Of a stretch of DNA of 32,000 nucleotides, positions 13,060-30,714 are shown one piece after another. The notes under the pieces are model-generated. The model ran no database searches and was not told where the DNA came from. It saw nothing but the letters and a program-made list of their open reading frames with translations. The position numbers were made by a program, and so were the translations under genes. Position 1 is the first letter of the stretch. Every line of letters begins with the position of its first letter. The stretch spans positions 18,240 to 50,239 of the forward strand of contig NZ_JPMI01000075.1 in assembly GCF_000733295.1 (NCBI RefSeq). Reading direction: 5' to 3'. The stretch is from Archangium violaceum Cb vi76. GTDB lineage: Bacteria > Myxococcota > Myxococcia > Myxococcales > Myxococcaceae.

Positions 13060-13096
13060 CGTTTTTTCCTCTCGAGCCGGTGCACGGCCCTCGTGA

Positions 13097-13103
13097 GGGG
13101 GGG
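13097..13103 (-). repeat. Poly-C(7) tract (G7 on the plus strand) in the B1-P2 intergenic leader
   Basis: Read directly from the sequence. The homologous positions carry C10 (17370-17379) and C6 (16052-16057). Confidence 0.9.
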
Positions 13104-13110
13104 TGGACGT

Positions 13111-14103
13111 CTACGGAACCTGCTGCATCCGCTGCTTCTCCCTCAGGATCAGGTTCCACTCCTGAAGGTCCAGACCGAGAACTCGAATCCACGCGTCGAT
13201 CTCCGGCGCCAGGCTGGGGTCGGTGCTCCGCAGCCGCTGCAGCTCGGGAATCGCTCCAATGAAGCCCAACTGGGCGATGCTCTGCAGCAGCGCCTTGCGC
13301 ACCCCGGCATCCTGCTCGTCGCGGTACATGGCGAGCACGGACTGCCGGGCGCTGGCCATCTGCTCCGCGGGCACGCCGCCCAGCGCGAGCGCCGCCGCCT
13401 TGCGCACCTCGGCATCCTCGCTGCGCAGCAGGGATTGAATCTTCCCGGCCGACTCGGCGCTGATCATCTGCGTGTTCATGTTGCCGAGGATCTTCGCCGT
13501 CACCTTGGGATCGGTGGAGGCGGTGGCGGCGGACACGGCGGCATCCGAGGCCGGGCCGTGGTAGCCCGCGTAGACCTCCTGGATGTCCTCGACGATGTTC
13601 TGGGCCGCTTCCTGGCGCACCTCGGGGGAGGCGTCGCGCACCAGCTTCTCGTACGCGCCATCCGTGCTCTCCAGGGCGCTGGTGCGGCGCATGGAGCGCA
13701 CGGCGGCGGCGCGCAGGGCCGGGTCACGCTCCTCGATGGCCCGCTTCGCCACGGCCTTGATGGCCTCGGGGTCCGCGCCGCGCTCGGTGCGCGCCACCAG
13801 GGCGGCCGCGAGGTGCTCGGACATGACGGGGTCCGTCTCCCGCTCGAACGCGGCGCGGAGCTCGCTGTCCGGCAGGGTGACGGCGGCCTCGCGCAGCAGC
13901 GTCCGCATGTACTTCTTGTACGCCGCGGAGTTCGACTCGAGCCCCTGGCGGATGGAGTCCATCAGGCCCTGCACCGAGCAGCGCTCGCCCTCGAGCGCGG
14001 GGCCGGGGGCGACCACCTGGGCCGCGGCCACGCCAGGCAGCAGCGCGCACAGCGTGAGCGCCAGCAGGAGGGGACGGGTGGAAAAGGAAGGGGTGCGTGT
14101 CAT
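13111..14103 (-). CDS. Secreted HEAT-like repeat protein B1 (330 aa)
   Basis: Start trimmed to MTRTPSFSTRPLLLALTLCALLPGVAAAQ (signal peptide). HEAT-like repeats: DPALRAAAVRSM, SPEVRQEAAQNI, DAEVRKAAALALG, DAGVRKALLQSIAQLG. It aligns end to end with the paralog at 17386-18384. Confidence 0.75.
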   Translation of the reverse strand: MTRTPSFSTRPLLLALTLCALLPGVAAAQVVAPGPALEGERCSVQGLMDSIRQGLESNSAAYKKYMRTLLREAAVTLPDSELRAAFERETDPVMSEHLAAALVARTERGADPEAIKAVAKRAIEERDPALRAAAVRSMRRTSALESTDGAYEKLVRDASPEVRQEAAQNIVEDIQEVYAGYHGPASDAAVSAATASTDPKVTAKILGNMNTQMISAESAGKIQSLLRSEDAEVRKAAALALGGVPAEQMASARQSVLAMYRDEQDAGVRKALLQSIAQLGFIGAIPELQRLRSTDPSLAPEIDAWIRVLGLDLQEWNLILREKQRMQQVP

Positions 14104-14117
14104 GGTCGTTCCCGGGC

Positions 14118-15341
14118 TCACTCGTGGCGGTCGAGGCAGCTGAAGGGATCCTGGTTGGGCAGGCTGTTGTAGAGCCGCACGAAGTCCAGGATGCCGCTCG
14201 CGTAGAGGCGCTCGAAGTCCTGGTAGATGGGCTGGAAGCGCGGATCCATCGTGGCCATGTTCGCCATGACGGGCAGGGCGCGCTTGCCGGCGGTGCGCGC
14301 GGAGAAGCGGAAGAGGGCCCACTTCACGCACAGCGATTGCTCGGTCTCGAAGGTCTTGGCGAACAGGTCCAACACCTTGCCCTTGTCCAGGGACAGGGAG
14401 AGGTTGTGCGCGGCCGCGTCCCGGCCCTCCTCGCTGCCCTCGCCCACGAGAATCCTGGCGAAGCGCTCGGTCTCCTCCGCGCTGAGCAGGGGCGCGGCGT
14501 GCATGGGCATCATCTGCCCCAGGTAGCGGATCTGCTCGTCGGGCGACTGGGCGCCGATGGTGAGCAGCTTGTCCATGTAGGGGCCGATGTTCTCGTTCTG
14601 CTTGAACTCGCGCTTCATGACGCGCGCGATGGTGCGGGCCGCGGCCCAGCCCGCCTCACCGGACACGGGGTCATTGGCGAAGGTGGTGAGCTTGTCGAGC
14701 GCCGCCGGCGCCAGCCGCTTCTGCGTGTCCAGCGCGGAGAGGATGCCCGCGCGCCGCTCGGTGGGGAGGGCGTTGTCCAGGCCCATGTCCAGCAGCTTCG
14801 TGGCCACCTGGGGCTGGTGGACGGCCTCGGAGTCCCGCACCGCCGTCAGGTACACCCCGAAAGGCTTGCCCGGGGCGTCGAGCGACCAGCTCAGCACCTG
14901 GAGCGCGTTGGCCGGGTCCTTGCCAATGAGCTCCGTGAGGCGCTCCCTCAGGAAGTCCCGGACGAGCCCGTCCCGCGAGTTGAGCAGCGGCTCGGCCCAC
15001 TGGCGGAAGTTGTGGATCGTCACGCCCTCGTTGAAGCGCTCCAGCTCCTTCCAGCAGAGGGTCTCCTGGAAGCGCGGGGCCTTGGCCTCCTCGCCCGGGA
15101 GCGAGGGGGCGCCGGTGGGACTGGGAGTGTTCGTCTTCCGGGCCGGGCCCTGCTTCGCGGACGCCTGAGCGGCGGCGGGGCCCGTCTCCACCGGCCCTTC
15201 CTTCGCCTCACCTCCGCGGCCAATCAGCGCCACACCGGCCAGCACGGCGACGAGGCCGGCTCCGGCGGCGAGCAGCGGCTTGCGCCGGCTGGAGGTGCCT
15301 GGAGGGGAAGAGGAGGGGGGCGGCGGAGAAGTGGGAGTCAT
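14118..15341 (-). CDS. Single-pass membrane protein A1 with a Pro-rich N-tail and a helical periplasmic domain
   Basis: One TM helix (PLLAAGAGLVAVLAGVALIG). Conserved blocks shared with 18401-19615: CW(K/E)(E/D)LERFNE, SGEAGW, RWALFRF(S/A)ARTAGK, DPF(S/G)CLDRHE. The stop lies 14 nt upstream of the B1 start. The start is taken at MTPTSPP by homology to A2; the ORF is open to 15398. Confidence 0.7.
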   Translation of the reverse strand: MTPTSPPPPSSSPPGTSSRRKPLLAAGAGLVAVLAGVALIGRGGEAKEGPVETGPAAAQASAKQGPARKTNTPSPTGAPSLPGEEAKAPRFQETLCWKELERFNEGVTIHNFRQWAEPLLNSRDGLVRDFLRERLTELIGKDPANALQVLSWSLDAPGKPFGVYLTAVRDSEAVHQPQVATKLLDMGLDNALPTERRAGILSALDTQKRLAPAALDKLTTFANDPVSGEAGWAAARTIARVMKREFKQNENIGPYMDKLLTIGAQSPDEQIRYLGQMMPMHAAPLLSAEETERFARILVGEGSEEGRDAAAHNLSLSLDKGKVLDLFAKTFETEQSLCVKWALFRFSARTAGKRALPVMANMATMDPRFQPIYQDFERLYASGILDFVRLYNSLPNQDPFSCLDRHE

Positions 15342-15440
15342 GGCGGTGGGCCCGGTCTGGGGTTCCATCTCTAGAGAGACCCCGGACCTCACCGCCATCT
15401 CACAAAAATGAATAAAACGAGAATTTCTCGGGAATTTGGA

Positions 15441-15466
15441 GCCTCCTGGTTTTCCCGCCAGGAGGC
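15441..15466 (-). terminator. 9-bp stem hairpin between the P3 stop and the A1 promoter region
   Basis: gcctcctgg (15441-15449) pairs with ccaggaggc (15458-15466) around an 8-nt loop. An AT-rich block (15399-15437) follows on the A1 side. Confidence 0.4.
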
Positions 15467-15490
15467 CGGAGGGCGGAGGAAGGCCCCCGC

Positions 15491-16015
15491 TCAGTCGAGG
15501 ACGCCGAGCGTCTCGCTGCGGTCCACGGCCTCACCGCGGGTGGTGTAGCCGGAGTACCAGGAGGTGTCCTTGGTGCCGTTCTTCTCCTGCATGAGGTGGG
15601 CGTGGGGGCCGGTGGCCTGGCCGGTGCCGCCTTCATTGCCCACCTGGCAGCGGTCGCACGTGCGGTCATACGAGTCGCTGGTCTTGATGAAGTGCTTCTG
15701 GTGGAACTTCCAGCCGTCCGCCCAGGTGTGCACCGCCATGTTGGCGTTCTCGTAGCCGTTGCCGTTGCAGACGACGCCGGAGGTATTGATGGTCACGTTC
15801 CAGTGGACGGAGCCCACCACGGCCGTCTCGGCGCCCCAGTAGTTGCAGCGGCCGCTGGAGACGTCGATGGCGCCGTGGTACCCGCCGCTCGGGTAGTAGG
15901 TGAGGGCGGTGATGGTGCCGGGGAAGGGGGCCTTGACGGTGTGGGCCGTCACGGCCGCGGGGACGAGCGCCAGGGAAGCGAGCGCGGCCAGGGTCATCTT
16001 CATCGTGTGACGCAT
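15491..16015 (-). CDS. Secreted minimal M23 peptidase P3
   Basis: The signal peptide is almost identical to that of P2 (MRHTMKMTLAALASLALVPAAVTAHTVKAP). Motifs YHGAIDVS, KHF, GNEGGTGQATGPHAHLMQ. The 3' end is near-identical in nucleotides to the P2 3' end. Confidence 0.85.
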   Translation of the reverse strand: MRHTMKMTLAALASLALVPAAVTAHTVKAPFPGTITALTYYPSGGYHGAIDVSSGRCNYWGAETAVVGSVHWNVTINTSGVVCNGNGYENANMAVHTWADGWKFHQKHFIKTSDSYDRTCDRCQVGNEGGTGQATGPHAHLMQEKNGTKDTSWYSGYTTRGEAVDRSETLGVLD

Positions 16016-16142
16016 CGTGTTTCCTTTCGGGCCGGCTTCACCGGCCCGCGTGGGGGGACTTCACTCATTGAAGAGGGTGCTGCCGCGCCGCCATCCCAGG
16101 AAAAACAGACAGGCCATGGGATGTCTGGCTTTGACGGGGAAC

Positions 16143-16667
16143 TCAGTCCAGCACACCGACGAGCTCGCCCAGCGAGAGGGCCTCGCCCACGGTGGAGTAG
16201 CCCGCGTACCAGGAGGTGTCCTTGGTGCCGGACTTGTCGCGCTGAAGGTGCAGGGAGTTGGCGGGAATGCCCTTGTCTCCCGCCGCGCCGATGTTGCAGC
16301 GGTCGCACGTGCGGTCAAACGTCTGGCCCGTCTTGTTGAAGTCCATCAGGCGGAAGGTGAAGCCGTCGGCGAAGGTGTGCTTCGCCACGTTCTGCGGGCC
16401 CGTCATGGCCGTGCCGCAGAGGGTGCTCGGAGTGTTGATGACCACGTTCCACGCCAGCGAGCCGGCGACGCCCGTGGTGATGGGGGTGGTGCCACACGTG
16501 CCGCCGTCGATGTCCACGGCGCCGTGGAACGCGCCGCTCGAGGAGTAGGTGGTGGCCGCCACGGTGCCAGCCAGCGGGGCGCCGACGTTGCGCGCGGCGG
16601 GAGAGGCGGCGGGGACGAGCGCGGCCAGCGCGGTGAGCGCCAGCAGGGACTTCATCGTTCGAGGCAT
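16143..16667 (-). CDS. Secreted M23-like paralog P4 (catalytic His residues lost)
   Basis: Start at MPRTMKSLL, with a GGAGGA RBS 8 nt upstream. HxxxD is kept (FHGAVDID). The middle His is replaced (LMDF instead of WHF) and HxH reads SLH (ANSLHLQRDKSG). Confidence 0.8.
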   Translation of the reverse strand: MPRTMKSLLALTALAALVPAASPAARNVGAPLAGTVAATTYSSSGAFHGAVDIDGGTCGTTPITTGVAGSLAWNVVINTPSTLCGTAMTGPQNVAKHTFADGFTFRLMDFNKTGQTFDRTCDRCNIGAAGDKGIPANSLHLQRDKSGTKDTSWYAGYSTVGEALSLGELVGVLD

Positions 16668-16734
16668 GGCGGAGTCCTCCCGGGCCGTGCCTGCCGCCCG
16701 GGTCATGGCTGTGAAGAAGGGGGGAGGAGACGGG

Positions 16735-16765
16735 CTGGGAGGCCCCGGACAGGCGCGCCTCCCAG
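16735..16765 (-). terminator. 9-bp stem hairpin downstream of the P5 stop
   Basis: ctgggaggc (16735-16743) pairs with gcctcccag (16757-16765) around a 13-nt loop. It lies in the 134-nt spacer between P5 and P4. Confidence 0.35.
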
Positions 16766-16801
16766 TGCACACGAGGCCCGGACAGGCCTGGTGACTACTG
16801 G

Positions 16802-17335
16802 TTACGTGGCGATGTTTCCGACGGTCTCGCCGCGGCTGAGGAACTCACCCCGGGTGGTGGTGCCGTCGTACCAGCCGGTGAGGTTGCTGCCGTTGCGGTC
16901 GACCTGCATGTGGGTGTGGGGGCCGGTGACGTTGCCCGTGCCGCCCTCGTCGCCGATCTGGCAGCGGTCGCACGTCTTGTCCACCGAGGCGCCGGTCTTG
17001 AGGAAGTGCCACTGGCGGAGGATCTTGCCGTTGGCGAAGGTGTGCTTCACCTCGTTCTGGTTGCCGCTGCCGTTGCCGTAGCACACGGTGCCGGTGGTCC
17101 GGATGGTGACGTTCCAGTGGAACGAGCCGTACGCGCCCGTCTCCACGCCCCAGTAGCCGCAGGCGTTGGCGCTGGAGATGTCCACCGCGCCGTGGAAGCT
17201 GCCGCTGGAGTAGTACGTGGTGGCCGTCACGGTGCCCGGGAAGGGCGAGCCGACCCGGACGTCGGCGGTCGCGGCCGCGGGGATGAACGCCAGGGAAGCC
17301 AGGACTGCCAGCGTCGTCTTCATCGTCTTACGCAT
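16802..17335 (-). CDS. Secreted minimal M23 peptidase P5
   Basis: Only the last 177 codons of the 509-aa ORF are credible. They give MRKTMKTTLAVLASLAFIPAAATA, then FHGAVDIS, QWHF, GDEGGTGNVTGPHTHMQVD. The RBS is GAGGAA. Confidence 0.85.
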   Translation of the reverse strand: MRKTMKTTLAVLASLAFIPAAATADVRVGSPFPGTVTATTYYSSGSFHGAVDISSANACGYWGVETGAYGSFHWNVTIRTTGTVCYGNGSGNQNEVKHTFANGKILRQWHFLKTGASVDKTCDRCQIGDEGGTGNVTGPHTHMQVDRNGSNLTGWYDGTTTRGEFLSRGETVGNIAT

Positions 17336-17369
17336 CGTTGTTCCTCTGGACCGGTGGACCGGCCCCAGT

Positions 17370-17379
17370 GGGGGGGGGG
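17370..17379 (-). repeat. Poly-C(10) tract (G10 on the plus strand) in the B2-P5 intergenic leader
   Basis: Read directly from the sequence. It lies 6 nt downstream of the B2 TAG stop on the minus strand. Confidence 0.9.
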
Positions 17380-17385
17380 TGTTCG

Positions 17386-18384
17386 CTACCGAGCCTGTTG
17401 CTGCCGCTGCTTCTCCCTCAGGATCAGGCTCCAATCCTGGTGGTTCATGTTGAGGACTCGAATCCAGCTGTCGATCTCCGACGTCATGCTCGGGTCGACA
17501 GCGCGCAACCGCTGGAGCTCGGGCACCGCGCCGGAGAAGCCGAGCCGGGCGATGCTCTGGAGGATGGCCTTGCGGACGGTGGGGTCCTTCTCGTCGCGGT
17601 ACATGCCGGTCAGCGACTGACGGGCGTTGGCCATCTCCGCCACGGGCACGCCGCCGAGCGCGGTGGACGCCGCGGCGCGGACCTCGGCGGAGTCGCTGCC
17701 CAGCAGCCGCTCGAGCTTGCGCGCCGAGTCGGAGCTGATCTCCCCCGTCATGAGCTGGCCGAGCACCTTCGCCGTCACCTTCGGGTCGTCCGAGGCCGCG
17801 GCCGCCGACACCGCGGTATCCGCCGCCGGGCCATGGTGCCCGCCGTAGACGTAATGGGTGTCCTCGACGAGGTTGGTCGCCGCTTCCATGCGCACCTCGG
17901 GCGAGGGATCTCTCACCAGGCGCTCGAACATCTCCCCGCTGCGCCCCAGCGCGCCGGTGCGGCGCATGGCGCGGACCGTGGCGGCGCGCAGGCCGGGGTC
18001 CCGGTCCTCCAGCGCCCGCTTCGCCACCACCTGGAAGGCATCGTCCTCCAGGCCGCGCTCGGTGCGCGCCACCAGGGCCGCCGCCAGGTGCTCCACCATC
18101 ACGGGGTCGTACTCGCGCTCGAAGGCGGCCTGGAGCTCGGCGCGCGGCAGGTTGACGGCGGACTCGCGCAGCAGCGTGCGCAGGTAGAGCTTGTAGGCCT
18201 CGGACCTGGACTTCATCCCGCGGCGGATGGAGTCCATCAGCCCCTCGACCGAGCACGTCGTGGGCTGGAGGGCGGGGGCCTCGCTCGAGGCGGACTGCCG
18301 CGCGGAAGCCAGGGCCGGCGCGAGCAGGCACACGGTGAGCGTCAGGGTGGGGAGCACGTTCATACGAAGGAAGGCGCGTGTCAT
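17386..18384 (-). CDS. Secreted HEAT-like repeat protein B2 (332 aa)
   Basis: Signal peptide MTRAFLRMNVLPTLTLTVCLLAPALASA. It is collinear with B1 (CSVEGLMDSIRRG, DPGLRAATVRAM, SPEVRMEAATN, SAEVRAAASTALG, ILREKQRQQQ). Confidence 0.8.
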   Translation of the reverse strand: MTRAFLRMNVLPTLTLTVCLLAPALASARQSASSEAPALQPTTCSVEGLMDSIRRGMKSRSEAYKLYLRTLLRESAVNLPRAELQAAFEREYDPVMVEHLAAALVARTERGLEDDAFQVVAKRALEDRDPGLRAATVRAMRRTGALGRSGEMFERLVRDPSPEVRMEAATNLVEDTHYVYGGHHGPAADTAVSAAAASDDPKVTAKVLGQLMTGEISSDSARKLERLLGSDSAEVRAAASTALGGVPVAEMANARQSLTGMYRDEKDPTVRKAILQSIARLGFSGAVPELQRLRAVDPSMTSEIDSWIRVLNMNHQDWSLILREKQRQQQAR

Positions 18385-18400
18385 GGGTGGGCTCCGGAGC

Positions 18401-19615
18401 TCATTCCTCGTGGCGGTCCAGGCAGCCGAAGGGATCGTCCGTGGGCAGGGAGAACCAGATGCGGTCGAAGTCGACGATGCCGCTGGCGTAGAGCTTCTCG
18501 AACTCCTGGTAGATGCCCTGGAAGCGCGGGTCCGTCATGGCCATGTCCGCCATGACCGGGAGCGCGTCCTTGCCCGCGGTGCGCGCCGCGAAGCGGAACA
18601 GGGCCCAGCGCACGCAGAGCTCCTTCTCGATTTGGAAGTTCTTGCCGTAGAGCTCCAGCGCCTGGGCCTTGTCCTCGGACATGGACAGCTCGTGCGCGGC
18701 CATCATGCGGACGTCCTCGCTGCCCTCGGTGGCCAGCAGCTTGCCGAGCCGCTCCGTGGCCTTCGTGTCGAGCGGCGCATCGGCGTCCATCCCCATCTCG
18801 GCCGCGAGGTAGCGCACCTGCTCGTCCGCCGACTGGCTGCTGATGGTGAGGAGCTTGTCGAGGTAGGGCTTGAAGTTGCCGGACTTCTTGAAGTCCTCCT
18901 TCATCACCCGGCCGATGGCGCGCGTGGTGACCCAGCCGGCCTCGCCCGAGGCGGCGTCCTGCGCGAAGGTGGCCAGCTTGTCGAGCGCCGCCGGCTCCAG
19001 CCGGGGCATGCGCTGCAGCTCGTCCAGGAAGCCCGCGCGCCGGCCCAGGTCCATCTTCTCGTCCAGCCCGAGCTCGGTGAGCCGCGCGGCCATCTTGGGC
19101 AGGGCCTTGGAGCCCCGCAGGCCGCCCATGAACAGCTTGAACTCGGCGGGCGAGGCCTCGCGCGCCCAGTCCAGCACCTCGCTGGCGCGGCCCGCGTCAT
19201 CGCCGATGAGCTCGCCCAGGCGCGCCTTGAGGTAGTCGAGGACGAGCGGATCCTTCACGGCCAGCAGCGGCCTGGCCCACTCGCGGAACGTCTCCAGCGT
19301 CACCGACTCGTTGAAGCGCTCCAGGTCCTCCCAGCAGACGGTGGTGTTGAACTGCTGGGGCTTCGACTCGGCCTGCACGGGCGCGTTCTGGCCGGCGGGC
19401 CCGCCCTTGGAAGCGGAGGGGCCGGTGGACGAGGGCTGGGGCGCGGCGGCCTGGGAGGCCTCGGGCTTGCCGCCCTCCTCGGAGGCGCCACGGGAGAGGA
19501 GCGCCACCGCGGACAGCAGGGCCACGGCACCGAGCGCGATCGCCACCTTCGGGCCGCGGCGGGCCGTGTCATTCACCGGAAGGGACGCGGAGCGATGGGA
19601 GGATTCTGGAGTCAT
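18401..19615 (-). CDS. Single-pass membrane protein A2, paralog of A1
   Basis: TM helix VAIALGAVALLSAVALL and the same conserved blocks as A1. The stop lies 16 nt upstream of the B2 start. An AAGGAC RBS precedes the ATG. Confidence 0.8.
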   Translation of the reverse strand: MTPESSHRSASLPVNDTARRGPKVAIALGAVALLSAVALLSRGASEEGGKPEASQAAAPQPSSTGPSASKGGPAGQNAPVQAESKPQQFNTTVCWEDLERFNESVTLETFREWARPLLAVKDPLVLDYLKARLGELIGDDAGRASEVLDWAREASPAEFKLFMGGLRGSKALPKMAARLTELGLDEKMDLGRRAGFLDELQRMPRLEPAALDKLATFAQDAASGEAGWVTTRAIGRVMKEDFKKSGNFKPYLDKLLTISSQSADEQVRYLAAEMGMDADAPLDTKATERLGKLLATEGSEDVRMMAAHELSMSEDKAQALELYGKNFQIEKELCVRWALFRFAARTAGKDALPVMADMAMTDPRFQGIYQEFEKLYASGIVDFDRIWFSLPTDDPFGCLDRHEE

Positions 19616-19766: not shown

Positions 19767-19874
19767 TCACGGGAAATTCAGGAGCCCCAGGCGCATCGAC
19801 AGCTGGGTGCCCTCCCTGGCGCCGCCGGAGATGTCACCGCCGATGAGGTGGGGGTTGTCGGCCTCGTACTGCTT
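19767..19874 (-). pseudogene. Orphan fragment of a CrtI-family oxidoreductase 3' region
   Basis: It translates to KQYEADNPHLIGGDISGGAREGTQLSMRLGLLNFP*. The intact gene (24277-25710) has AQYEAYNPNFIGGDISGGAMEGSQLFARP at the matching position. Nucleotide similarity extends over about 70 bp (19801-19871 vs 24437-24507). Confidence 0.75.
19817..19846. repeat. Left copy of a 30-bp perfect direct repeat
   Basis: tggcgccgccggagatgtcaccgccgatga is identical to 24453-24482, in the same orientation. Confidence 0.9.
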
Positions 19875-20088
19875 ACGAGGTGTGGCTTGCCGGAGGGGTC
19901 TGCTTTTCGACGGCCGCGGCAATCAGAGGTGCCATGACGCGCAGCCCCTCCAAGGAGAGCCGGCCGGCCTGATATTGGGCATACCAAGCCCGTCGTTGGC
20001 GCAGGACTCTCTCATCATGGACGATGGGGAGGGCTCGCAGCGTGGCCTCCGCGAGGGGCCGTGCTTCCAGGGGCACCTTGCTGGTCAT
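19873..20088 (-). CDS. Small ORF (71 aa), possibly the C-terminal remnant of an HNH-partner protein
   Basis: The ATG overlaps the upstream stop as TGATG. The sequence MTSKVPLEARPLAEATLRALPIVHDERVLRQRRAWYAQY… resembles the C-terminal helical part of ATPase-associated HNH proteins, as far as I remember them. Confidence 0.35.
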   Translation of the reverse strand: MTSKVPLEARPLAEATLRALPIVHDERVLRQRRAWYAQYQAGRLSLEGLRVMAPLIAAAVEKQTPPASHTS

Positions 20089-20300
20089 CACGAGCGGAAG
20101 TGATCGACCGTGCCGTTGAGGTCCCACATCGCGGTGTAGCCACAGCGGTTCTTGAAACCGTCCATGAGCTGGCCCCGGAAGGGGGACCACAGGTCGCGAG
20201 GACGCTCGGCGTGGGGGTTTCGCGAGAGCCAGTCTTGACCCGGCCGGCGGGCCCTGGCGTTGAAGTCCGGTGGTTCCGGAACGCGTGCGACGGGAATCAT
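20088..20300 (-). CDS. Small ORF (70 aa) resembling the N-terminal half of a TIGR02646-like HNH protein
   Basis: The ATG overlaps the ATPase-like gene stop as ATGA (20297-20300). The sequence …LWSPFRGQLMDGFKNRCGYTAMWDLNGTVDHFRS* fits the …CxYxE…(V/I)(E/D)HFxP… pattern, but terminates right after DHFRS. Confidence 0.45.
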   Translation of the reverse strand: MIPVARVPEPPDFNARARRPGQDWLSRNPHAERPRDLWSPFRGQLMDGFKNRCGYTAMWDLNGTVDHFRS

Positions 20301-22915
20301 CGCACCGCACCGCTCGCGACCAGCCAGCGGGGCCAGAAGGGATCGTTCCCTGGGAGCGTCTCCTGGAGCTTCTGGTTGATCTTTCCGGGTGACTCGTAAC
20401 CGGGCAGCGCCTCGTTGCGCATGTACGCCTCCGCGGCTTCGATGGCCTGCTCTGCTTCCTGGGAGCGTGCCTGCTTGAGGCCAAAGGTCTCGGAGACGAG
20501 CCAGTTGACCGCATCTCCCTGCATGGCCCAGGGTTGCTCCTCGACGAGGATGCGGCCCTGCTCGAGGCCGAAGTGGAAGACCTTGTCCCGCTCCGTATCG
20601 AAGTGGCGCTCCAATGAGGCCATCACCAGCGGTGAATGCGTGCTGGCGACCACCTGTACCTGGACTTCTCCCGTCAGCCGCTGGATGACGCGGAGCAGGG
20701 CGGGGAGGAACAACCGCTGCCACTTGGGGTGCAGGTGTGATTCCACCTCGTCGATGAGGAGGAGCAGTCGGTGGGTAACGGGCTGCCCGGCGAGGCGTGC
20801 GGCCTCACGGTGCTCGTTCCAGGACCAGACCAGCAGATAGGCGAGACCCAGAACGCGCCTCACCGCGGCCGATGCGTGGATGACCGGTACGGTGCCGTAG
20901 GACATCTCCAGCGTGGGGATGTCCAGGGCCTGGTGGATTGAAACACGGGCCGGGCTGCCGGGACGCAGGGGCTCGTCCGGCAGTGACAGCCCCGCGAGGA
21001 CCTCCTTCAATGAATCGAAGAGGCCGGTGCGCCGGTACTGCCAATGCACCCAGTCGCGCACCAGTCCGTTGCACCAGGTGGTGCCGTGCTCGTCCAGCCC
21101 GTTCCACAGGGTCTCCGGCGTGAAGCGGTACATGGACAGTGCGTCGGCGCGGCCATTGCCGGAAGGCACGGCGTTGCGGATGGGATCCCAGACGGAGAAA
21201 CCTCCATCGGCCCGGGCGTAGAGGGCGAGGGTGTGGGAGGCGGGCCACCGCGGAGGGCGCACCCACTGCTCCCTGACCGCATCGAAGTGGCCCTCCACGT
21301 CGGGGTCCGCTTTCGCGCCCACGAGAATGGCCGCCCTGGCTCGTCCCTCCTTGATTTCCGCCGACCAGCTTCCAAGGGAAACTCCATGGGTGGCCTTCAG
21401 CTCCTCGTCGCTCAGCGAGAGCCGGACGATGGACTCGGCAAGGCCCTCGCGCAGTGCGCTCGAATGGCGCAGGGTCTTGTCCTGAATGGCCGCATAGACA
21501 CGCTCCTCCTTGGGCATGTCGTATTGGGGATCCAACTCCCCCAGCACTTCGAGAGCCACGTCAACGAAGGTTCGGAGCTGGGTGTCGGTGAGCTTCCCCG
21601 CCAGCCGTTTCCAGGCCTCAGCGGAAGAAGCCCATCTCCAGGACTTGCCTCCCCATCGCTCGGTGTCGGCCACGATGGGCATACCAGGCTCGCGGCTCCT
21701 GGCGGCGCACAGTTGCTCCACCTCCTTCGGGTCCGCTCCGAGCCGCCGGAGCGCCTCCTGATCAGCCTCGTTCGACGGCGTCCATGCGCCAGCCAGCAGC
21801 ATGACGAGCAGTGCGGCCTCGTCCTCCCTTCCTGGGCGAGAGGGGGCCCGGTAGCCCGCCAGGGTCTGATAGGCGGACACCCGCCCTCCCGCCTCCCGGG
21901 CCAGCCGCTCCGCGTCGGCTTCTCGTACACCCGCATGGACGAGCACCTCGGCGAAGGACTTGAACGGGATGGGCTCGAGCAGGACATGGGGACGTCCACT
22001 TCCCGAGGCATCTTCCGGCACCACGACGAACGCGTTGCTCGTGACCGCTTCTCCCGGGTCGAAGTCCTCGAAGCCAGGAAGGAGGACGAGCGGCTGGGCC
22101 TGATGCGCACGCACGGCCCAACGCCATGCTTCCCGGCTCTCCACGACCAGGGCCCTCGCCAACCACTGCTCCCGCTCGGTTCGTGGGGACGTCGCCAGGG
22201 ATGCGGCGACGAAGAGCAGCGCCTCCTCTCGTGTCCCGCCCCGTACATGCAGTGGCTGGGGACGAGCCCCCTTGAGCCAGTCCCGCACGAACTGCGCCGC
22301 CTTCTGTCGCTCCCGTCCCGCCACGACCAGTTCGGGGGGGCAGGGGTTGGGTCCTGCCACGACCGCTCCAGCGGTGGAGGAAGTCCTCCACATCCGTGAG
22401 CTCCGCCGCGGGTTGTTTCAGGGCGGAAGTGGAGAACCAGCATGCCACGGCCGGGGTCTGCGCCAGCCAGGCCGCGAGGTCATCCGCATCGTAGACGCGC
22501 ACGTCGGCCCAGATGCCCTGGCGTCGCTTCTCGGTGACCCAGGCCTCCTTCTCCGGCTGCCCGAAACGTCGCGCGGTGACCGCGACATAGGTCGTGCGAG
22601 AGGCGTCGATGGAAGAGGCGGAGGCCTGCTGCGTGCGCTTGGTGAAGTCTTCCTCCAGCTTCGGACGGACCCTCTTCTCCACCGAGAGCTCCCAGACCGA
22701 TGGGCCGGCTGGCCAGAACGGCCCGGCCCTGGCCGAGATCACGATGCCGTCCCACCCCTTCAGCCGTACGCCGCTGTCGGCGGGCATGCTGATGGATTGA
22801 AGGGGGCGCTCGCCAGCAACAACCTCCGCACCAACTCGGGTAGCATGGGCGGCGCGTCGGTGCGCTCGGCCCACTGAACGAGTGCCTCTCCTTTGATATC
22901 CCTCAATGAGGCCAT
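20297..22915 (-). pseudogene. Large (about 870 aa) defence-like protein: conserved N-terminal domain, helical middle, P-loop-less ABC/AAA_21-type ATPase C-terminus. It is interrupted by two homopolymer frameshifts.
   Basis: Three collinear coding segments: 22915-~22804 (MASLRDIKGEALVQWAERTDAPPMLPELVRRLLLASAP), ~22803-~22341 (LQSISMPADSGVRLKGWDG…FLHRWSGRGRTQPLPP, other frame) and ~22340-20297 (ELVVAGRERQ…). The C-terminus has LLLIDEVESHLHPKWQR and VVASTHSPLV. Confidence 0.6.
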
Positions 22916-24220: not shown

Positions 24221-24276
24221 CCCCCGCCGGTGCTCCCCGGTGACGTGGCCCATTGGGACGCCCATGACGAGGCCTC

Positions 24277-25710
24277 TCACCCCTTGCGCCACACCTCGCT
24301 GGCGAGCAGCGCGCGGGCGGCGAGGAAGCCACACAGCCCGTGCACGCCGGGCCCCGGAGGCGTGGAGGCCGAGCACAGGTAGAGGCGTGGGTCCGGCGTG
24401 GCGTAGGGGACGAGCCGCGCCACGGGCCGGGCGAAGAGCTGCGAGCCCTCCATGGCGCCGCCGGAGATGTCACCGCCGATGAAGTTGGGGTTGTAGGCCT
24501 CGTACTGCGCGGGCGAGCGCGTGTGCCGGGCGAGGATGCGCTCGCGGAAACCGGGAGCGCCGCGCTCCACCTGGGCCTCTATCCGCTCCGTCATGTCCTC
24601 GGTGCAGCCGTGGGGGACGTGGCAGTACGCCCAGCCGGTGTGCTGGCCCGAGGGGGCGCGGCTCGGGTCGAAGAGCGTGTGCTGGGCGAGCAGCACGTAG
24701 GGGCGCTCGGGAATCTCCCCGCGCGAGACGGCGGCCTCGCTGGCGGAGATCTCCTCCAGGGTGCCGCCGAGGTGCACGGTGCCGGCGCGGGCACACGCGG
24801 GGGCGCGCCAGGGAATGGGGCCGGAGAGGGCCCAGTCCACCTTGAAGACACCGGGCCCGTAGCGGAAGCGCTGGAGCTTCTCCACGTAGGACGGAGGCAG
24901 CCGGTGGCCGGCGAGCTTCACGAGCTGCCGGGGCGTCACGTCGAGCAGCACGGCGCGCGAGCGGGGCAGCTCGTCCACGTTGAGCACGCGGTGCCCCGTC
25001 TCCACCTCGCCGCCGAGCGCGCGCAGGTAGCTGACGAGCGCGTCCACGAGCTTCTGCGTGCCACCGCGGGGGAAGGGCCAGCCCACGGCGTGGCCGGAGG
25101 CGAGCAGCAGAATCCCGAAGGCGGAGGTGAAGGGCTTCTCCAGGGCGGAGAAGGAGTGCGCGGCGGAGCCGGCGAAGAGGGCGCGCGCGAGGGGCCCCTG
25201 GAAGGCCCGCGAGGCGAGCGAGTGCGCGGGACGCAGGGCGCGCAGGCCGAAGCGGGCGAGGCGGATGGGACGGCGGGGGAGGCGCAGCGGGTCACCGAGC
25301 TGGGCCATGACGTCGTCGAAGGCGCGCACCATGGGGCGCATCCACTTCACATAGCGCTCGGCGTCGGGGCCGAGCCCCTGGGCGGTGGCCTCGAGGGAGC
25401 GCTCGAGGAGGGCGGCGGTGCCGTTGTCGAGCGGATGGGCGAGGGGGGCCTCGGGGTGGACCCATTCGAGGCCATGGGAGGCGAGGGGCAACTGGCGGAA
25501 GAAGGGCGAGGCGGCGGCGAGCGGGTGGATGGCGGAGCAGACGTCGTGGACGAAGCCGGGGAGGGTGAGCTCGGCCGAGCGGGCGCCACCGCCGGGAGTG
25601 GGGCCGGCCTCGAAGACACGCACGGAGCGGCCCGCGCGCGCCAGGGAGATGGCGGCGGCGAGCCCGTTGGGACCGGCGCCCACCACGACGGCATCGAGCA
25701 TGGAGCTCAT
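24277..25710 (-). CDS. NAD(P)/FAD-dependent oxidoreductase, phytoene desaturase (CrtI) family
   Basis: N-terminal dinucleotide-binding fold DAVVVGAGPNGLAAAISLARAG…FEAGPTPGGGA. The C-terminal block is LYLCSASTPPGPGVHG. Confidence 0.9.
   Translation of the reverse strand: MSSMLDAVVVGAGPNGLAAAISLARAGRSVRVFEAGPTPGGGARSAELTLPGFVHDVCSAIHPLAAASPFFRQLPLASHGLEWVHPEAPLAHPLDNGTAALLERSLEATAQGLGPDAERYVKWMRPMVRAFDDVMAQLGDPLRLPRRPIRLARFGLRALRPAHSLASRAFQGPLARALFAGSAAHSFSALEKPFTSAFGILLLASGHAVGWPFPRGGTQKLVDALVSYLRALGGEVETGHRVLNVDELPRSRAVLLDVTPRQLVKLAGHRLPPSYVEKLQRFRYGPGVFKVDWALSGPIPWRAPACARAGTVHLGGTLEEISASEAAVSRGEIPERPYVLLAQHTLFDPSRAPSGQHTGWAYCHVPHGCTEDMTERIEAQVERGAPGFRERILARHTRSPAQYEAYNPNFIGGDISGGAMEGSQLFARPVARLVPYATPDPRLYLCSASTPPGPGVHGLCGFLAARALLASEVWRKG
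24453..24482. repeat. Right copy of the 30-bp perfect direct repeat (inside the oxidoreductase gene)
   Basis: Identical to 19817-19846. Confidence 0.9.
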
Positions 25711-27002: not shown

Positions 27003-27587
27003 ATGGGCAAGGGAAAGCGTCCAGCCACCTACGAGGACATCGAGGCGTTACCACCGGGGTGGGTGGGGGAGAGCATCGACGACGAGCTCTATGCCTTTCC
27101 CCGCCCATCGACGTGGAACCTGTGGGCGATGTCGGTGCTCGGTGCACGACTGGGGCGCACCTTTGGTGTTGGGCACGGCGGGCGGGGTGGCTGGTGGCTC
27201 GTGAGGGAGCCGGAGTGGCACTTCGGCCGGCAGGTGCTGGTGCCGGATCTGGCGGGCTGGCGTTACGAACGGGCTCCCGGGTTGTTCGAGCAGGATGCGC
27301 CCTTCTTCGACCTGACGCCCGATTGGGTCTGTGAGGTGCTCTCCCCATCCACGGAGGCGTTGGACCGGGAACACAAGCTGCGGCTCTACCATCAAGAGGG
27401 CGTGAGCCACGCGTGGTTGGTGGACCCGCGGGCGCACACGCTGGAGGTCTACCGGCGGGGGGCTCGAGGTTGGCGGCTCACACGGTACGGAGGCGGGGAA
27501 GTGGTCCACGCCGAGCCATTCGACGCCGAGCCACTGGACCTGGGGCGCCTCTGGGCGCCGGGTTCCATGCCCGCGCCCGGGCCTTGA
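27003..27587 (+). CDS. Uma2-family (DUF820) putative endonuclease
   Basis: TYEDIEALPPGW…, VPDLAGW…, PDWVCEVLSPST…DREHKLRLYHQEGVSHAWLVDP…LEVYR. This is the characteristic Uma2 PD-(D/E)xK-like layout. Confidence 0.8.
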   Translation: MGKGKRPATYEDIEALPPGWVGESIDDELYAFPRPSTWNLWAMSVLGARLGRTFGVGHGGRGGWWLVREPEWHFGRQVLVPDLAGWRYERAPGLFEQDAPFFDLTPDWVCEVLSPSTEALDREHKLRLYHQEGVSHAWLVDPRAHTLEVYRRGARGWRLTRYGGGEVVHAEPFDAEPLDLGRLWAPGSMPAPGP

Positions 27588-27597
27588 TGCTCATGGT

Positions 27598-27957
27598 CTA
27601 CGAAGGAGGCGCGCCCAGGGTTCGGAGGAAATCCTCCACGGTGGTGGTGGGGTGAAGCACGAGGAAGTGCCCTTCGCTGGAGACGGAGACCTGCTCGGCC
27701 AGCAGGACGGAGCGGCACCAGAGGGCAAGCTCGGCACAGTCATGCGCATCTCCCGTGAAGTCGAGTGATGGGACCGGGCGGCAGAGGGACCCGGTGACGG
27801 AAGCGTGCACCATGGGTACCTGGAAGGAGAGGGTGCGGTGCGGGTTCGTGTCCGGCTCCAGTTTGACGTGGGCGGAGGGCCAGTGCTGGCGGAGGCTCTG
27901 GGCGAAATCGCTGGGAGGCAGGCTCCACCGAGGCCTGGCGGTGAGGCTGTAGTTCCT
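27598..27957 (-). pseudogene. Second tandem paralog of the 27958-28335 ORF, with no start codon at the homologous position
   Basis: Directly after the TAG of the upstream copy, the same frame continues as RNYSLTARPRWSLPPSDFAQSLRQHW…VPMVHASVTGSL…AELALWCRSV…. This is collinear with NYFLVMLSGWRFSARDFKHRLLTRW…LPMVHSRLEGAL…AEFALWVRSF…. The first ATG gives only 71 aa. Confidence 0.4.
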
Positions 27958-28335
27958 CTATCCAGGGGGAGGAGGGGAGTAGTCGAAGAGACGGAAGAGA
28001 TCGGCGGGAGAGGTGTCGGCCGTCAGGTCGAGCTGTGCGCTGGCGCCCTTGTCACAGAAGTGGAGGCGCTCGGCCGAGGGGACGAAGGAGCGGACCCAGA
28101 GAGCGAACTCGGCGACATCGCGGAGGTCGCCGTCCAAGGCAATGCCCGAGCCATCGCGGCGCAGAGCGCCCTCCAGCCTGGAGTGGACCATGGGAAGCGT
28201 GAACTCGAAGCGGTCGAGACTCCCGGGGCCCGTGTCCTCCTCGAGCGTGGCGTTGGACCAGCGTGTCAGCAGCCGGTGTTTGAAGTCCCGGGCGGAGAAA
28301 CGCCAGCCCGAGAGCATGACGAGGAAGTAGTTCAC
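27958..28335 (-). CDS. Hypothetical protein (125 aa), first of two tandem paralogs
   Basis: A GTG start at 28335 overlaps the TGA of the upstream ORF (GTGA). The alternative ATG at 28395 would overlap the upstream gene by 64 nt. Confidence 0.5.
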   Translation of the reverse strand: MNYFLVMLSGWRFSARDFKHRLLTRWSNATLEEDTGPGSLDRFEFTLPMVHSRLEGALRRDGSGIALDGDLRDVAEFALWVRSFVPSAERLHFCDKGASAQLDLTADTSPADLFRLFDYSPPPPG

Positions 28336-28727
28336 TCCTCCGAGTTCTCCATCGCATCCAACTCTTCGATGGAGGGGAAGCGGATGAAGACCCACTCACC
28401 GTCGCGCATGCGTGTGACGTTGTGGCGAGTACCCGCGATGACAATGACCGCCTCATAGGGCACAGCCACCTGGGCCCGCAGCCAGGCCAGGGCCTCATCC
28501 CTGGTGCCGAAGGAACGTAGGGGCTTCGGCCAGGCTTCTTCTGTGTTGAAAACCCTGACGTACTCCCAGAAATCCTTCATCCGGCCGATGTGCTGGACGA
28601 AGTGAAGCGCCAGTGCTGCGGTCTTGATGGTGGCGACCGTCTCCGGCTCGTGCGCGTGCTGTTCGTCCAGCGTTCCGAGGGAGTTCATGAGGTCTTCCAG
28701 CTTGGAATCCATGCTCCCCGCATACAT
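28332..28727 (-). CDS. Hypothetical protein (about 126-131 aa)
   Basis: Clean ORF with lower GC3 than the window average. Sequence MDSKLEDLMNSLGTLDEQ…; no motif recognised. Its 5' end abuts or overlaps the truncated 5' edge of the plus-strand phosphoesterase relic. Confidence 0.55.
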   Translation of the reverse strand: MYAGSMDSKLEDLMNSLGTLDEQHAHEPETVATIKTAALALHFVQHIGRMKDFWEYVRVFNTEEAWPKPLRSFGTRDEALAWLRAQVAVPYEAVIVIAGTRHNVTRMRDGEWVFIRFPSIEELDAMENSEE

Positions 28728-29646
28728 GGCGGAACATCGACGAGCTGCTGAAGGACGGGCCCATCGACCTCGTCTGTTTCACCGGCGATGTGGCCGACTG
28801 GGGCAAGCCCGAGGAGTACGGGCCCGCCACCGATTTCATCCAAGCGCTTCTCGAGCGCCTCTCCCTTCCTGTCGAGCGACTCTTCCTCGTCCCTGGCAAC
28901 CACGACATCGACCGCACGCAGGGCAAGAGCGCCTGGTCGAAGCTGAGAGGCAAGAAGGGTCTGCTCTTCCAGGTGAATCCGCTCGACCTGTCGCGCTGGA
29001 TGGCGGGAGGACGGCCACCGCTCGGTCTGGAAAAGGTCAAGCGCGAGGTGGCTCTCCCGGCAGGGTGCCTATCGCGAGTGGGTCTCCACGAAGCTGGGGC
29101 GGAAGGAGCTCGTCCCGTCCGAGAAGTCGCCCCACCCCTTCCTGGGCTACCGCCAGACACTCCGGCTTCCAGGCCAGCCATTCGACATGCATATCGTGGG
29201 CCTCGACTCCGCGTGGCTCGCGGGCGATGACGACGACAAGGGGAAGTTGCTCCTCACGACGAACCAGGTAGGGCGGCTGACCACCGATGCCCAAGGGGAG
29301 CGCCTGTCGGGCTTCCGCCTCGCCCTTGTCCACCACCCTGGGGGACGTGCGGTCGCGGGCGGTGGCGATGGGGAAGGTGGCGGACATCCTCCAGGCAAGA
29401 GGGGAGATGGAGGAGGCGCTGAGGATACGGCGGGAGGAGGAGTTGCCCGTCTACGAGCGGCTGGGGGACGTGCGGTCGTTGCTGGTTGGCCGCGCCAATC
29501 TGGCGCTGCTCTACTTGCAGCGAGGTCGACCAGAAGACCGGAACCTGGCCGCCGAGCTTCTTCGGCTGGCGCTAACGTCAGCGGAAGCCCTCCGGCTTCC
29601 CGAAGCCGTACAGATTCGGGATATCCAACGTCACTTTGGCCTGTAG
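28721..29646 (+). pseudogene. Relic of a metallophosphoesterase-…-TPR protein: 5'-truncated, one frameshift, one large internal deletion
   Basis: Segment 1 (frame 2): WRNIDELLKDGPIDLVCFTGDVADWG…LFLVPGNHDIDR. Segment 2 (frame 0, from about 29040): AYREWVSTKLG…MHIVGLDSAWLAGDDDDKGKL…LALVHHP. Segment 3 (frame 1, from about 29338): LGDVRSRAVAMGKVADILQARGEMEEALRIRREEELPVYERLGDVRS…. The N-terminal metal-binding D-x-H block is missing. Confidence 0.6.
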
Positions 29647-29753
29647 AGGCTCGGAACCCGAGTTGCACGGGTGTGAATGCGGCGGTGCCTATTCCGCGAG
29701 TTGGATTCGAAAGGCTACCGGCAGGGTCACGTATGGAATAGGATGCACCGGGC

Positions 29754-30677
29754 ATGCATGTCCGCCCTCCCGCCCTGGTCTCCAGGGTCGTTGTCGTGCT
29801 TCTGGCCCTCCTGCTGCCACATGTCACGCAGGCGGATCCGTCATCGTGGCGCCCCATCGTGCTCTCCGAGCTACCACCGGGCCACATGGCCGAAATCCGG
29901 GTCGCCGCCGACGTTCCCACGTTGGTGCGCTTCGAATCCGAGCTCGATCCGGCGGGGACGCGGCTCCAAGAGCAGAACTCGTCTCCCTTCGAGTCGCTGG
30001 ACGTCTCCGGTCGCTTGTTGTTGCTCCACCCCTCGGCCAGCGCATGGCTCCTGCCACGCATGCACCTTCAGGTCCGTCGGATGGACGGCACGAGCCTGAT
30101 CCTCGTGCTCGTCCCCAGTCCTCCCGCCCTGGCGGATGCGCAGGTGGACGTCTTCCTCCACCCGTTCTCACCCGGGGCGCTGCGGGCTGCTCTGGAGAGG
30201 GTGGGCGCCGAGCATGAGGCGCTGAAGCTCCAGTACGCTTCGTCCCAGGCCGAACTCGCGCGTTATCGCGATGACGAGTTCAATGCCGATGTCGCCATCG
30301 CGGTGTTGCTGCTCGACGACGAAGCTTCCTCCCATCTGGTGAAGGACAACGTCCTCGAGGTCAAGAACGCGGATGTGCGGGCAAGTGCCTGGTTCGTGCG
30401 TCTCGCCGGGCGCTCGGCCTACGTCTTCCTCGTGATGAACCGCCACCGCACGGAGAACTGGACTCTGGGGCAGGGGTTGATTCTCAACGACAGGACCCGG
30501 GAGTCTCTCCCCGTCATCGTCCGGGCCCGTCCATCCATCATTCCACCCGGCGGAAGTGGGCGTGTCGTGCTCGTCACTCGAACTCCGCCCTCGGCGGGCA
30601 AGGCACGCTATGAAGTCCAACTCCAGGGGCCGGACGGTCCCAGATGGCAGCTCTGCTATTATGGGGCGGAGCTCTGA
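29754..30677 (+). CDS. Secreted DUF2381-like protein (Myxococcus paralogous family, from memory)
   Basis: Signal peptide VVVVLLALLLPHVTQA. It has a beta-rich N-terminal half, a coiled segment (ALKLQYASSQAELARYRDDE), and a C-terminal beta domain. Confidence 0.55.
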   Translation: MHVRPPALVSRVVVVLLALLLPHVTQADPSSWRPIVLSELPPGHMAEIRVAADVPTLVRFESELDPAGTRLQEQNSSPFESLDVSGRLLLLHPSASAWLLPRMHLQVRRMDGTSLILVLVPSPPALADAQVDVFLHPFSPGALRAALERVGAEHEALKLQYASSQAELARYRDDEFNADVAIAVLLLDDEASSHLVKDNVLEVKNADVRASAWFVRLAGRSAYVFLVMNRHRTENWTLGQGLILNDRTRESLPVIVRARPSIIPPGGSGRVVLVTRTPPSAGKARYEVQLQGPDGPRWQLCYYGAEL

Positions 30678-30714
30678 GCTTCGCGGGCCAGGGCTTCATT
30701 CCCCACAGAGGTTC

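Follow-up and report, generated by a model that had tools for sequence, protein, structure and literature searches.

Septu anti-phage systems, reportedly named by Doron in 2018 and modelled accordingly in PADLOC-DB, consist of an ABC ATPase, PtuA, and an HNH nuclease, PtuB. Septu immunity requires each of four residues: K43 (Walker A) and D316 (Walker B) in PtuA, and H75 and N91 in PtuB (PMC13096335). A PtuA–PtuB effector pair is also found in retron Ec78/Eco7 (type I-A), where it is tied to a distinct upstream module for sensing or sequestration, and where defence is abolished by PtuA-E396Q and by PtuB-H57A, so that both the ATPase and the HNH activities are needed (PMC12819146). Here we describe a related locus in a 32,000-nucleotide stretch of the Archangium violaceum Cb vi76 genome (contig NZ_JPMI01000075.1, positions 18,240 to 50,239), referred to throughout as the window. 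Positions 19873-22915 of its minus strand are very probably what remains of a two-gene anti-phage operon of the Septu type that was inactivated recently. As in Septu, the C-terminal 340 aa of the first gene are a close PtuA homologue and fragments of PtuB lie downstream, joined by the ATGA overlap also seen in intact relatives. Unlike Septu, the window copy has lost the P-loop lobe of PtuA and the HNH core of PtuB, and the intact PtuA of this clade is the C-terminal module of a ~1,700-aa protein rather than a stand-alone protein of ~420 aa. The Cb vi76 locus is an ordinary, recently pseudogenised defence operon; it results from the decay of a gene and does not represent a novel type of ATPase.

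Four lesions mark the window copy: two single-base indels, −1 at a C5 run and +1 at a C7 run, and two deletions, of 2,517 bp and 151 bp. The relatives compared with it are an Archangium sp. metagenome-assembled genome (L001, JANODR010000171.1; protein P0001, 1,462 aa); Melittangium boletus (L002, CP185340.1; protein P0002, 783 aa), the sister strains A. violaceum KYC5002 (L009) and A. gephyra F0U59 (L011), and the metagenomic or environmental contigs L012, L013 and L014, the last of which encodes the intact fusion protein P0239. From its 5' end, the locus is laid out as follows.

22802..22915, minus strand: 5' segment of the fused gene, ATG and codons 1-38 in frame A; first helices of a nuclease-like domain
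22802..22806, unstranded: lesion 1, G5/C5 run one base short relative to orthologues, a −1 frameshift
22341..22801, minus strand: frame-B segment, codons 39-194; putative PD-(D/E)xK-like core
22334..22340, unstranded: lesion 2, G7/C7 run with one base too many relative to orthologues, a +1 frameshift that restores frame A
21353..22333, minus strand: predicted STAND/NLR-like alpha/beta plus helical module, codons ~195-519 (AlphaFold2 and Foldseek)
21352..21356, unstranded: lesion 3, junction of the in-frame 2,517-bp deletion; L014 residues ~520-1352 (~833 codons) missing
20297..21352, minus strand: PtuA remnant covering positions 74-417 of the 424-position ABC-ATPase profile, no P-loop lobe; stop at 20297-20299
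20095..20300, minus strand: PtuB 5' fragment, its ATG overlapping the PtuA stop (ATGA); ends ...NGTVDHFR, then a serine and TGATGA in the shifted frame
20094..20095, unstranded: lesion 4, junction of the out-of-frame 151-bp deletion; PtuB HNH core (SIKRDRSLAYEWSNYRYASQWLNSSKRAGEV...) lost
19873..20094, minus strand: PtuB 3' fragment, LVMTSKVPLEARPLAEATLRALPIVHDERVL...AAAVEKQT, in the other frame; stop at 19873-19875

The first-pass annotation of this stretch, made from the letters alone, had described a large defence-like gene whose frameshift-repaired product contains an ABC-type ATPase module with no Walker A motif. The motif is indeed missing: neither GxxxxGK[ST] nor any relaxed variant occurs anywhere in the repaired 872-aa protein, while the Walker B motif LLLIDEVESHLHP (LLLIDE) and the H-loop ASTHSP are both present, as stated at the time, inside the PtuA/AAA_21 match. 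What did not hold is the idea that an ATPase module lacking Walker A is an intrinsic property of the protein, or that the 872-aa product is the whole of it, the native form being ~1,709 aa. The PADLOC PtuA model PDLC00307 matches repaired residues 533-868 with E=1.4e-128 over profile positions 74-417 only, whereas intact relatives cover positions 2-417. Walker A is missing because the 2,517-bp internal deletion removed PtuA profile positions 1-73; together with these went the rest of the NLR-like protein (its C-terminal ~770 aa) and the linker. The missing motif is therefore a product of the deletion, not a feature of the ATPase.

The blastn breakpoints of this deletion are 9557→12078 in L001 and 2168→4686 in L014; on the two sides, window residues 1-520 are 79% identical to L014 residues 1-519, and residues 516-872 align to L014 residues 1353-1709 at 87% (86.6%) identity with no gap. 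Beyond the four lesions, the window frames are ungapped relative to L014. The junction shows only weak microhomology (GGCGGAA vs GGCGAA), which is not diagnostic, and no repeat able to collapse an assembly is present at the deletion junctions. The metagenomic close relative L012 reads ..AWPGPAKEGRARAAILVGAK over the right breakpoint and is hence undeleted there, so an undeleted allele exists in nature. In the first homologue search, P0001 matched the N-terminal 60% of the query and P0002 its C-terminal 41%. P0001 runs on for ~800 residues past the window N-terminal part into ...RLNLLAGDNSTGKT...ATILVGSKETPDVES..., a complete PtuA N-terminus, and PADLOC places PtuA positions 2-166 at its residues 1301-1461. 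The first-pass annotation had taken AILVGAKADPDVEG (AILVGAK) to occupy the expected P-loop position. We rejected the view that this segment is a degenerate P-loop: its counterpart is a conserved strand ~40 residues C-terminal to the real P-loop, and in intact relatives GDNSTGKT lies ~40 residues upstream of ATILVGSKETPDVES, the equivalent of AILVGAKADPDVEG.

Two of the checks proposed at the outset were profile searches with the repaired protein (Pfam, PADLOC) and a survey of intact orthologues for Walker A, and both gave clear answers. Intact relatives were found and every one examined keeps GDNSxGKT. The profile searches returned PtuA together with Pfam AAA_21 (6.4e-12) and AAA_15 over the Walker B/H-loop region; besides these, Pfam gave only a chance-level match to UVSSA_N (E 0.2), and no Toprim was listed. 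NCBIfam matches (retron PtuA, restriction-associated AAA, MADS3) all fell far under their cut-offs, the retron-PtuA score being 38 bits against a cut-off of 500. The likeness to the OLD-family and AAA_21 (AbiEii-like) proteins is confined to AAA_21 and AAA_15 on the Walker B/H-loop region, whereas the PtuA models fit best by far, and the ‘OLD-like’ label attached to the C-terminal part finds no support. The suggestion of a Septu/PtuAB-kind pair carrying an extra N-terminal module was, in contrast, well founded, with matches to both the PtuA and the PtuB models.

The second gene has fared no better than the first. The coupled downstream ORF (open reading frame), described at first as HNH-like, does overlap the ptuA stop by ATGA (20297-20300), the same arrangement as in L002 and L014, and it matches the PADLOC PtuB model PDLC00348 (positions 1-75 of 198, E=8.8e-21); however, it is only a 70-codon fragment whose core was lost to the 151-bp deletion. 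In a global alignment to L014 the only gap, of 151 bp, falls between window positions 20095 and 20094, after which the frame is shifted. The deletion takes out ...WSNYRYASQWLNSSK..., so that the candidate catalytic His (DHF) is kept and the Asn region is lost. The TGATGA ‘double stop’ that closes the fragment is GTG-ATG-ACC read in the wrong frame, and the 3' fragment beyond it matches PDLC00348 positions 128-191 (E=5.2e-13). With PtuA lacking Walker A and PtuB lacking the Asn region of its HNH core, no immunity would be possible; judged from the published mutagenesis of the lost motifs, the locus is presumably non-functional now. The two deletions suffice on their own to inactivate the system, even if both indels are artefacts. 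Since neither deletion is a homopolymer error and no collapse-prone repeat is present, the verdict is the same whatever the status of the indels.

The intact form of the operon can be read from relatives. In L014, gene 1 is a 1,709-aa ORF (P0239) with no internal stop and with GDNSTGKT at residue 1327, and the same protein was found on three independent metagenome contigs. Gene 2 is a 193-aa PtuB, overlapping gene 1 by 4 bp and lying upstream of formate dehydrogenase (fdh) genes, which are those that also flank the Archangium and Melittangium copies. The coupling of ptuA to ptuB in intact relatives is by an ATGA or GTGA overlap. Gene 1 has two parts: a ~1,290-aa protein of PHROG 18693 type, made up of a PD-(D/E)xK-like head, a STAND module and a ~770-aa C-terminal region, and then, past a Pro/Ala/Gln-rich linker, a complete PtuA ABC ATPase whose Walker A reads GDNSTGKT. 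Among the 150 best family representatives, 18 bear a complete C-terminal PtuA with GxNxxGK[ST], and five more long representatives that were checked bear AAA_21/AAA_15 modules. About one in six of the closest representatives is fused to a complete PtuA, followed by PtuB where this was checked. By comparison, there are >1,000 stand-alone PtuA relatives of ~420 aa. A whole-word search of the searchable literature returned no description of an NLR–PtuA fusion, which is no proof of novelty.

The two small lesions were located by translation and by alignment to orthologues, and the frame structure originally reported stands. The minus-strand ATG at 22915 opens MASLRDIKGEALVQWAERTDAPPMLPELVRRLLLASAP, beginning MASLRDIKGE...LLLASAP; the following 155 codons (LQSISMP...TQPLPP) are in a different frame, and the first frame resumes in the 698-aa ORF that ends at 20297. 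The switch points are the plus-strand runs G5 at 22802-22806 and G7 at 22334-22340, and adding one C to the C5 run and removing one C from the C7 run yields a single 872-aa ORF ending at 20297, in line with the ~870 aa first estimated. Codons 1-38 are 82% identical to P0001 residues 1-38 and fall in the PHROG 18693 match (protein residues 10-504). The frame-shifted middle segment is 81% identical to orthologues and its resemblance is therefore homology, not chance. At lesion 1, alignment shows GCT/GCG/GCA CCC in L014, L001 and L002 against GC-CCCC in the window, where the shifted frame meets a stop after 13 codons; at lesion 2, the orthologues have CTG-CCC-GCC/TCC-GAG against CTGCCCCCCCGAA. 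Each of these three orthologues passes both sites in one frame, so that, measured against them, the −1 and +1 of the window are real.

The Roche 454 platform is prone to homopolymer-length errors. The Cb vi76 draft genome was produced on it (GS FLX, assembled with Newbler, ~13-15x coverage; PMC4263843), and both G/C runs would become 6-mers once corrected. The origin of the window from this draft is borne out by five neighbouring proteins that are identical to entries for Cb vi76, while exact look-ups of the oxidoreductase and of the 698-aa ORF gave no record. No frame error relative to orthologues appears in the 19 other coding sequences of the window, which add up to 17.9 kb and include 23 G/C runs of length 5 and eight of length 6; this validated intact sequence contains no G/C run of 7 or more. 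Over the 3.3-4 kb shared with the sister strains at 97% identity, indels of 1-2 bp are confined to one intergenic spacer, and there is one 28-bp gap relative to L011, upstream of the oxidoreductase gene. On balance we lean modestly towards the two homopolymer indels being real mutations rather than 454 artefacts. The positions most likely to be miscalled in this assembly are long G/C runs outside the ORFs validated in a single frame, at 17370 (G10), 13097 (G7) and 3549 (C7), and the two homopolymer-length differences from the sister strains at 24234 and 24249, within the 24221-24276 spacer.

Of the three options offered by the first-pass annotation, an inactivated system is the one favoured here; a P-loop-independent variant is not, and a sequencing artefact may account for the two indels only. 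Several points do weigh against a recently inactivated relic. As the assembly is a 454/Newbler draft, both homopolymer indels may be base-calling errors, and an assembly error might in principle underlie either deletion junction. The substitution patterns show no relaxed constraint, which fits very recent inactivation and, equally, continued function. Furthermore, the 2,517-bp deletion keeps the frame, as does a deletion in M. boletus. A sensor or regulator role for the NLR-like part is an inference, and its NTPase motifs are degenerate. If the indels were 454 errors and the system alive, the cell would make the 872-aa protein and a working partner nuclease, and the ~13-15x 454 assembly, the 6-mers left after correction, the lack of a nonsynonymous excess on the window lineage and the ungapped frames relative to L014 would all fit. 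We nevertheless regard this as very unlikely: the repaired protein would still be without PtuA positions 1-73 and Walker A, ptuB is frameshifted and short of 151 bp that include the HNH core, neither deletion can be put down to homopolymer error, the 19 other coding sequences are free of frame errors, and the sister strains have lost nearly the whole cassette. Phase variation or programmed ribosomal frameshifting at the C5/C7 tracts would account for two frame changes that fall exactly on homopolymers and compensate each other. It is scarcely credible here, as L014, L001 and L002 are single-frame with no homopolymer at either site, neither tract-length heterogeneity nor conservation of the tracts is seen in the relatives available, the shifted frame meets a stop 13 codons past the first site, two coupled events 468 nt apart would be required, and the product would still have no Walker A; by eye, no slippery heptamer is evident at either site, no motif or downstream-structure search having been made.

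It is also conceivable that the window encodes a P-loop-independent PtuA variant, kept for a new ATP-independent role as a scaffold, decoy or regulator. The in-frame nature of the 2,517-bp deletion, the ratio of nonsynonymous to synonymous substitution rates (dN/dS) of ~0.15 for the PtuA remnant, and the different in-frame deletion in M. boletus that gives a similarly short protein of ~861 aa would be expected on such a view. It is extremely improbable all the same. All 18 fused relatives and P0002 have a canonical GxNxxGK[ST], and this includes the M. boletus short form; the Walker A Lys is essential in Septu (PMC13096335); the window ORF is broken 13 codons past the first indel and its partner PtuB is destroyed; and no second case of the same deletion was found, L012 being undeleted at the junction. 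A last alternative is that the deletion joined two genes, bringing the 5' portion of a separate large gene up to the 3' portion of a stand-alone ptuA next to it. The separate N-terminal-only and C-terminal-only matches of the first homologue search and the fact that most family members (~1,260 aa) are without an ATPase point this way, but L014/P0239, like at least 17 further representatives, has both parts, joined by a linker, in a single ORF, as does L001 save for one nonsense codon. Because such fused ORFs pre-exist in relatives, the deletion must be internal to one fused gene; a two-gene chimera was therefore rejected and we give it hardly any credence.

A recently inactivated Septu-type operon is also what the relatives lead one to expect, as each of those available is damaged in its own way and the cassette is in progressive decay. 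In L001, a TGG→TGA nonsense change at 12387-12389 (DWVD-stop-QYRR) cuts the fused gene into pieces of 1,462 aa and 234 aa, and PtuB has a 114-bp in-frame deletion (13336-13451). The environmental contig L013, 98% identical to L001, has neither defect, with the Trp intact and PtuB full-length. A scan of genome contigs with the 1,710-aa L001 protein matched L001 alone, the peptide patterns being too specific. M. boletus has lost the equivalent of L014 residues ~390-1232 in frame (~843 codons, ~2.5 kb) and has kept Walker A. Its ORF (L002 7767-10352) starts at MVSPRDIQ.. and encodes ~861 aa, the annotated 783-aa ‘AAA family ATPase’ starting ~78 codons late; PtuB is intact (190 aa), and the ~861-aa protein may be a functional short form. 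In the sister strains, whose flanks are 97% identical to the window flanks, only a 37-codon PtuB remnant is left (L009 9558-9668, L011 9396-9506), with 62% and 57% identity, respectively, to PtuB residues 22-57; both carry a 212-aa membrane-protein gene that is not present in the window.

Pairwise dN/dS values are 0.15-0.25, and synonymous/nonsynonymous counts on the window lineage (28/13 and 31/12) are the same as on the L001 lineage. These values imply purifying selection for most of the history of the gene and hence that the lesions are recent. No relaxed selection was found on the window lineage, a result that cannot separate very recent loss from retained function. Three of the four independent deletions in the cassette are in frame (2,517 bp in the window, ~2.5 kb in M. 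boletus and 114 bp in L001 PtuB), for which the chance expectation is ~11%. Such a bias may stem from selection against truncations that are polar or toxic, or it may have no meaning.

The protein fused to PtuA belongs to a large family. Window residues 10-504 match PHROG 18693 over positions 7-492 of 1258 (E=1.8e-32), the first ~40% of the profile, whereas stand-alone relatives match it end to end (positions 4-1251) with E down to 1e-144; unlike the window gene, the profile includes no ATPase module, and it has no assigned function. The family comprises 5,145 representative clusters (50% identity) at E<=1e-3 and 2,271 at E<=1e-30. Most members are stand-alone proteins of ~1,260 aa without an ATPase, some with an N-terminal XRE or excisionase helix-turn-helix (HTH). 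The stand-alone members on L004 (ENA ERZ21830278 contig_3) and L005-L007 occur in two settings: one is flanked by a TrwC relaxase and a type I restriction–modification operon, and others share an island with Lsr2 and an ECF sigma factor, in which an ORF of 64-80 aa ends ~10 bp upstream of the large gene. Sequence profiles said little about function: Pfam gave no match on the window N-terminal part, three stand-alone members had no PADLOC match, thus none to an AVAST/NLR-type model, and only an N-terminal HTH (in P0040) from Pfam, and a PDB sequence-profile search with the family alignment returned chance-level matches only.

Structure prediction was more informative. The AlphaFold2 model of repaired residues 1-520 has a pLDDT of 93.8 and a pTM of 0.91, and Foldseek searches against the PDB returned Avs3 8dgc (E=2e-5), Avs4 8dgf, Apaf-1, CED-4, SAMD9, NLRC4 and plant resistosomes, with RFC clamp loaders next in the list. 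The STAND matches span E-values of 2e-5 to 2e-2 with probability up to 0.99, the top ones lying between 2e-5 and 5e-4 at probability 0.99, but their TM-scores are low, at 0.19-0.30. The models thus point to an Avs/Apaf-1-like STAND/AAA+ architecture for the fused partner. In common with the Avs, Apaf-1 and CED-4 NLRs, it has a nuclease-like head, a central AAA+/STAND-like module and a long C-terminal region, and the family occurs in mobile and defence contexts (TrwC, type I restriction–modification). It differs from them in the degenerate Walker motifs of the family as well as the low TM-scores, and the window keeps the first ~519 residues only, so that the part in which a C-terminal TPR-like repeat sensor domain would be expected, ~770 aa in relatives, is deleted there. 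No Walker A or Walker B is present at the NOD position in any of 52 aligned members. The corresponding positions read ‘V.A.S..EA.AFVAA’ and ‘PL.L.P’, with x-S-x-x-E-A at the P-loop site and a Walker B strand that ends in P rather than D/E. KpAvs8 (PMC13581612) is a published example of an Avs protein in which the motifs are likewise degenerate.

The N-terminal domain had been suggested to be nuclease-like, and its predicted fold agrees, although Foldseek support is weak. The N-terminal 197 residues were modelled from the P0001 segment, which is 82% identical (pLDDT 91.6); AlphaFold2 models of the domain have pLDDT values of ~92-94. The modelled core runs alpha-beta-beta-beta-alpha-beta, fitting a restriction-endonuclease-like fold. 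The best Foldseek matches are for the most part PD-(D/E)xK nucleases (MUS81, Can2, Card1, EcoT38I, Bse634I, SgrAI, LmuA and Hef), with weak E-values of 5e-3 to ~1, and the lower matches include the unrelated folds of APOBEC3, small GTPases and RFC. Across the 52 family members D56 never varies, and E76, K86, D90 and R94 show conservation of 90% or more; a contiguous (D/E)xK triad of the canonical kind is not present, the segment reading E76-L-S. A PD-(D/E)xK-like, ‘nuclease-like’ assignment is thus reasonable but unproven.

By analogy with retron Ec78, the NLR-like part of the intact ancestor was probably a sensor of a phage cue that controlled the PtuA–PtuB nuclease complex, and its nuclease-like head may have served as a second effector or as a DNA-binding element. 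The likeness to the retron is one of concept, since the module added here is a protein in covalent fusion with PtuA, whereas the retron has a reverse transcriptase with msDNA (multicopy single-stranded DNA). We tentatively propose, as a possibility slightly short of an even chance, that intact operons of the L014 type are an undescribed Septu subtype, in which a P-loop-less Avs-like STAND protein with a PD-(D/E)xK-like head is fused to PtuA as the phage sensor that licenses PtuAB, and that the stand-alone PHROG 18693 form is an NLR-like defence family without a functional P-loop. If this is true, the NLR-like–PtuA fusion would be a protein-based counterpart of the way in which retron Ec78 co-opts PtuAB.

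The window feature itself is of little value, and its apparently P-loop-less ABC ATPase is not worth pursuing as a new mechanism. It does carry a caution, in that frameshift repair by eye can give a plausible ORF that is still short of 833 codons. The interest lies in the fused partner, a very large unannotated family with an apparently Avs/Apaf-1-like fold and degenerate NTPase motifs. The fusion gives a testable link between NLR-like sensing and a Septu effector pair, and the natural deletion variants (window, M. boletus and L001) mark domain boundaries.

The position of the cassette also differs between lineages. L014, L001 and M. boletus have it immediately upstream of fdh, the window clade at another site. 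In the window, the canonical site upstream of fdh (11909-12459, compared with L014 502-6329) holds a 179-aa M23-like paralogue, and the Septu cassette is found ~8 kb away, between a 404-aa gene and a 203-aa gene. Abutting the PtuB relic is one further feature.

19801..19872, minus strand: 72-bp copy of part of an oxidoreductase gene, derived from the FAD-oxidoreductase gene at 24280-25710

This copy matches L001 1371-1444 and L009/L011 10761-10832 by blastn, and oxidoreductase residues ~402-428 by tblastn; it is not present at the equivalent position in L009 and L011. It looks like the scar of the rearrangement that relocated the cassette here.

The fdh alpha gene of the window (8530-11826, minus strand) encodes a molybdopterin formate dehydrogenase with an in-frame TGA at 11218-11220 (NQARI-stop-HSST). 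The same TGA is present in L001, L002 and L014, and gene callers split the gene into pieces of 190/202 aa and 891 aa; it is almost certainly a selenocysteine codon, not a lesion. Between fdh and the cassette (~12,460-19,615, minus strand) lies a tandem paralogous triplet, encoding a ~405-aa protein, a ~330-aa HEAT-repeat protein and a ~175-aa M23-peptidase-like protein. The copies are 65-88% identical to each other and to those of L001, L009 and L011, copy number varies by strain, and extra single copies of the ~175-aa M23-peptidase-like gene occur in the same interval. On the other side, the surroundings (27003-31902) form a variable region with many nuclease- and immunity-like genes. A Uma2-family endonuclease gene lies at 27003-27584, an HNH-endonuclease gene is cut to its last ~47 codons (31313-31453, compared with 143 aa in L009), and an intact DUF4265 gene follows at 31453-31902.

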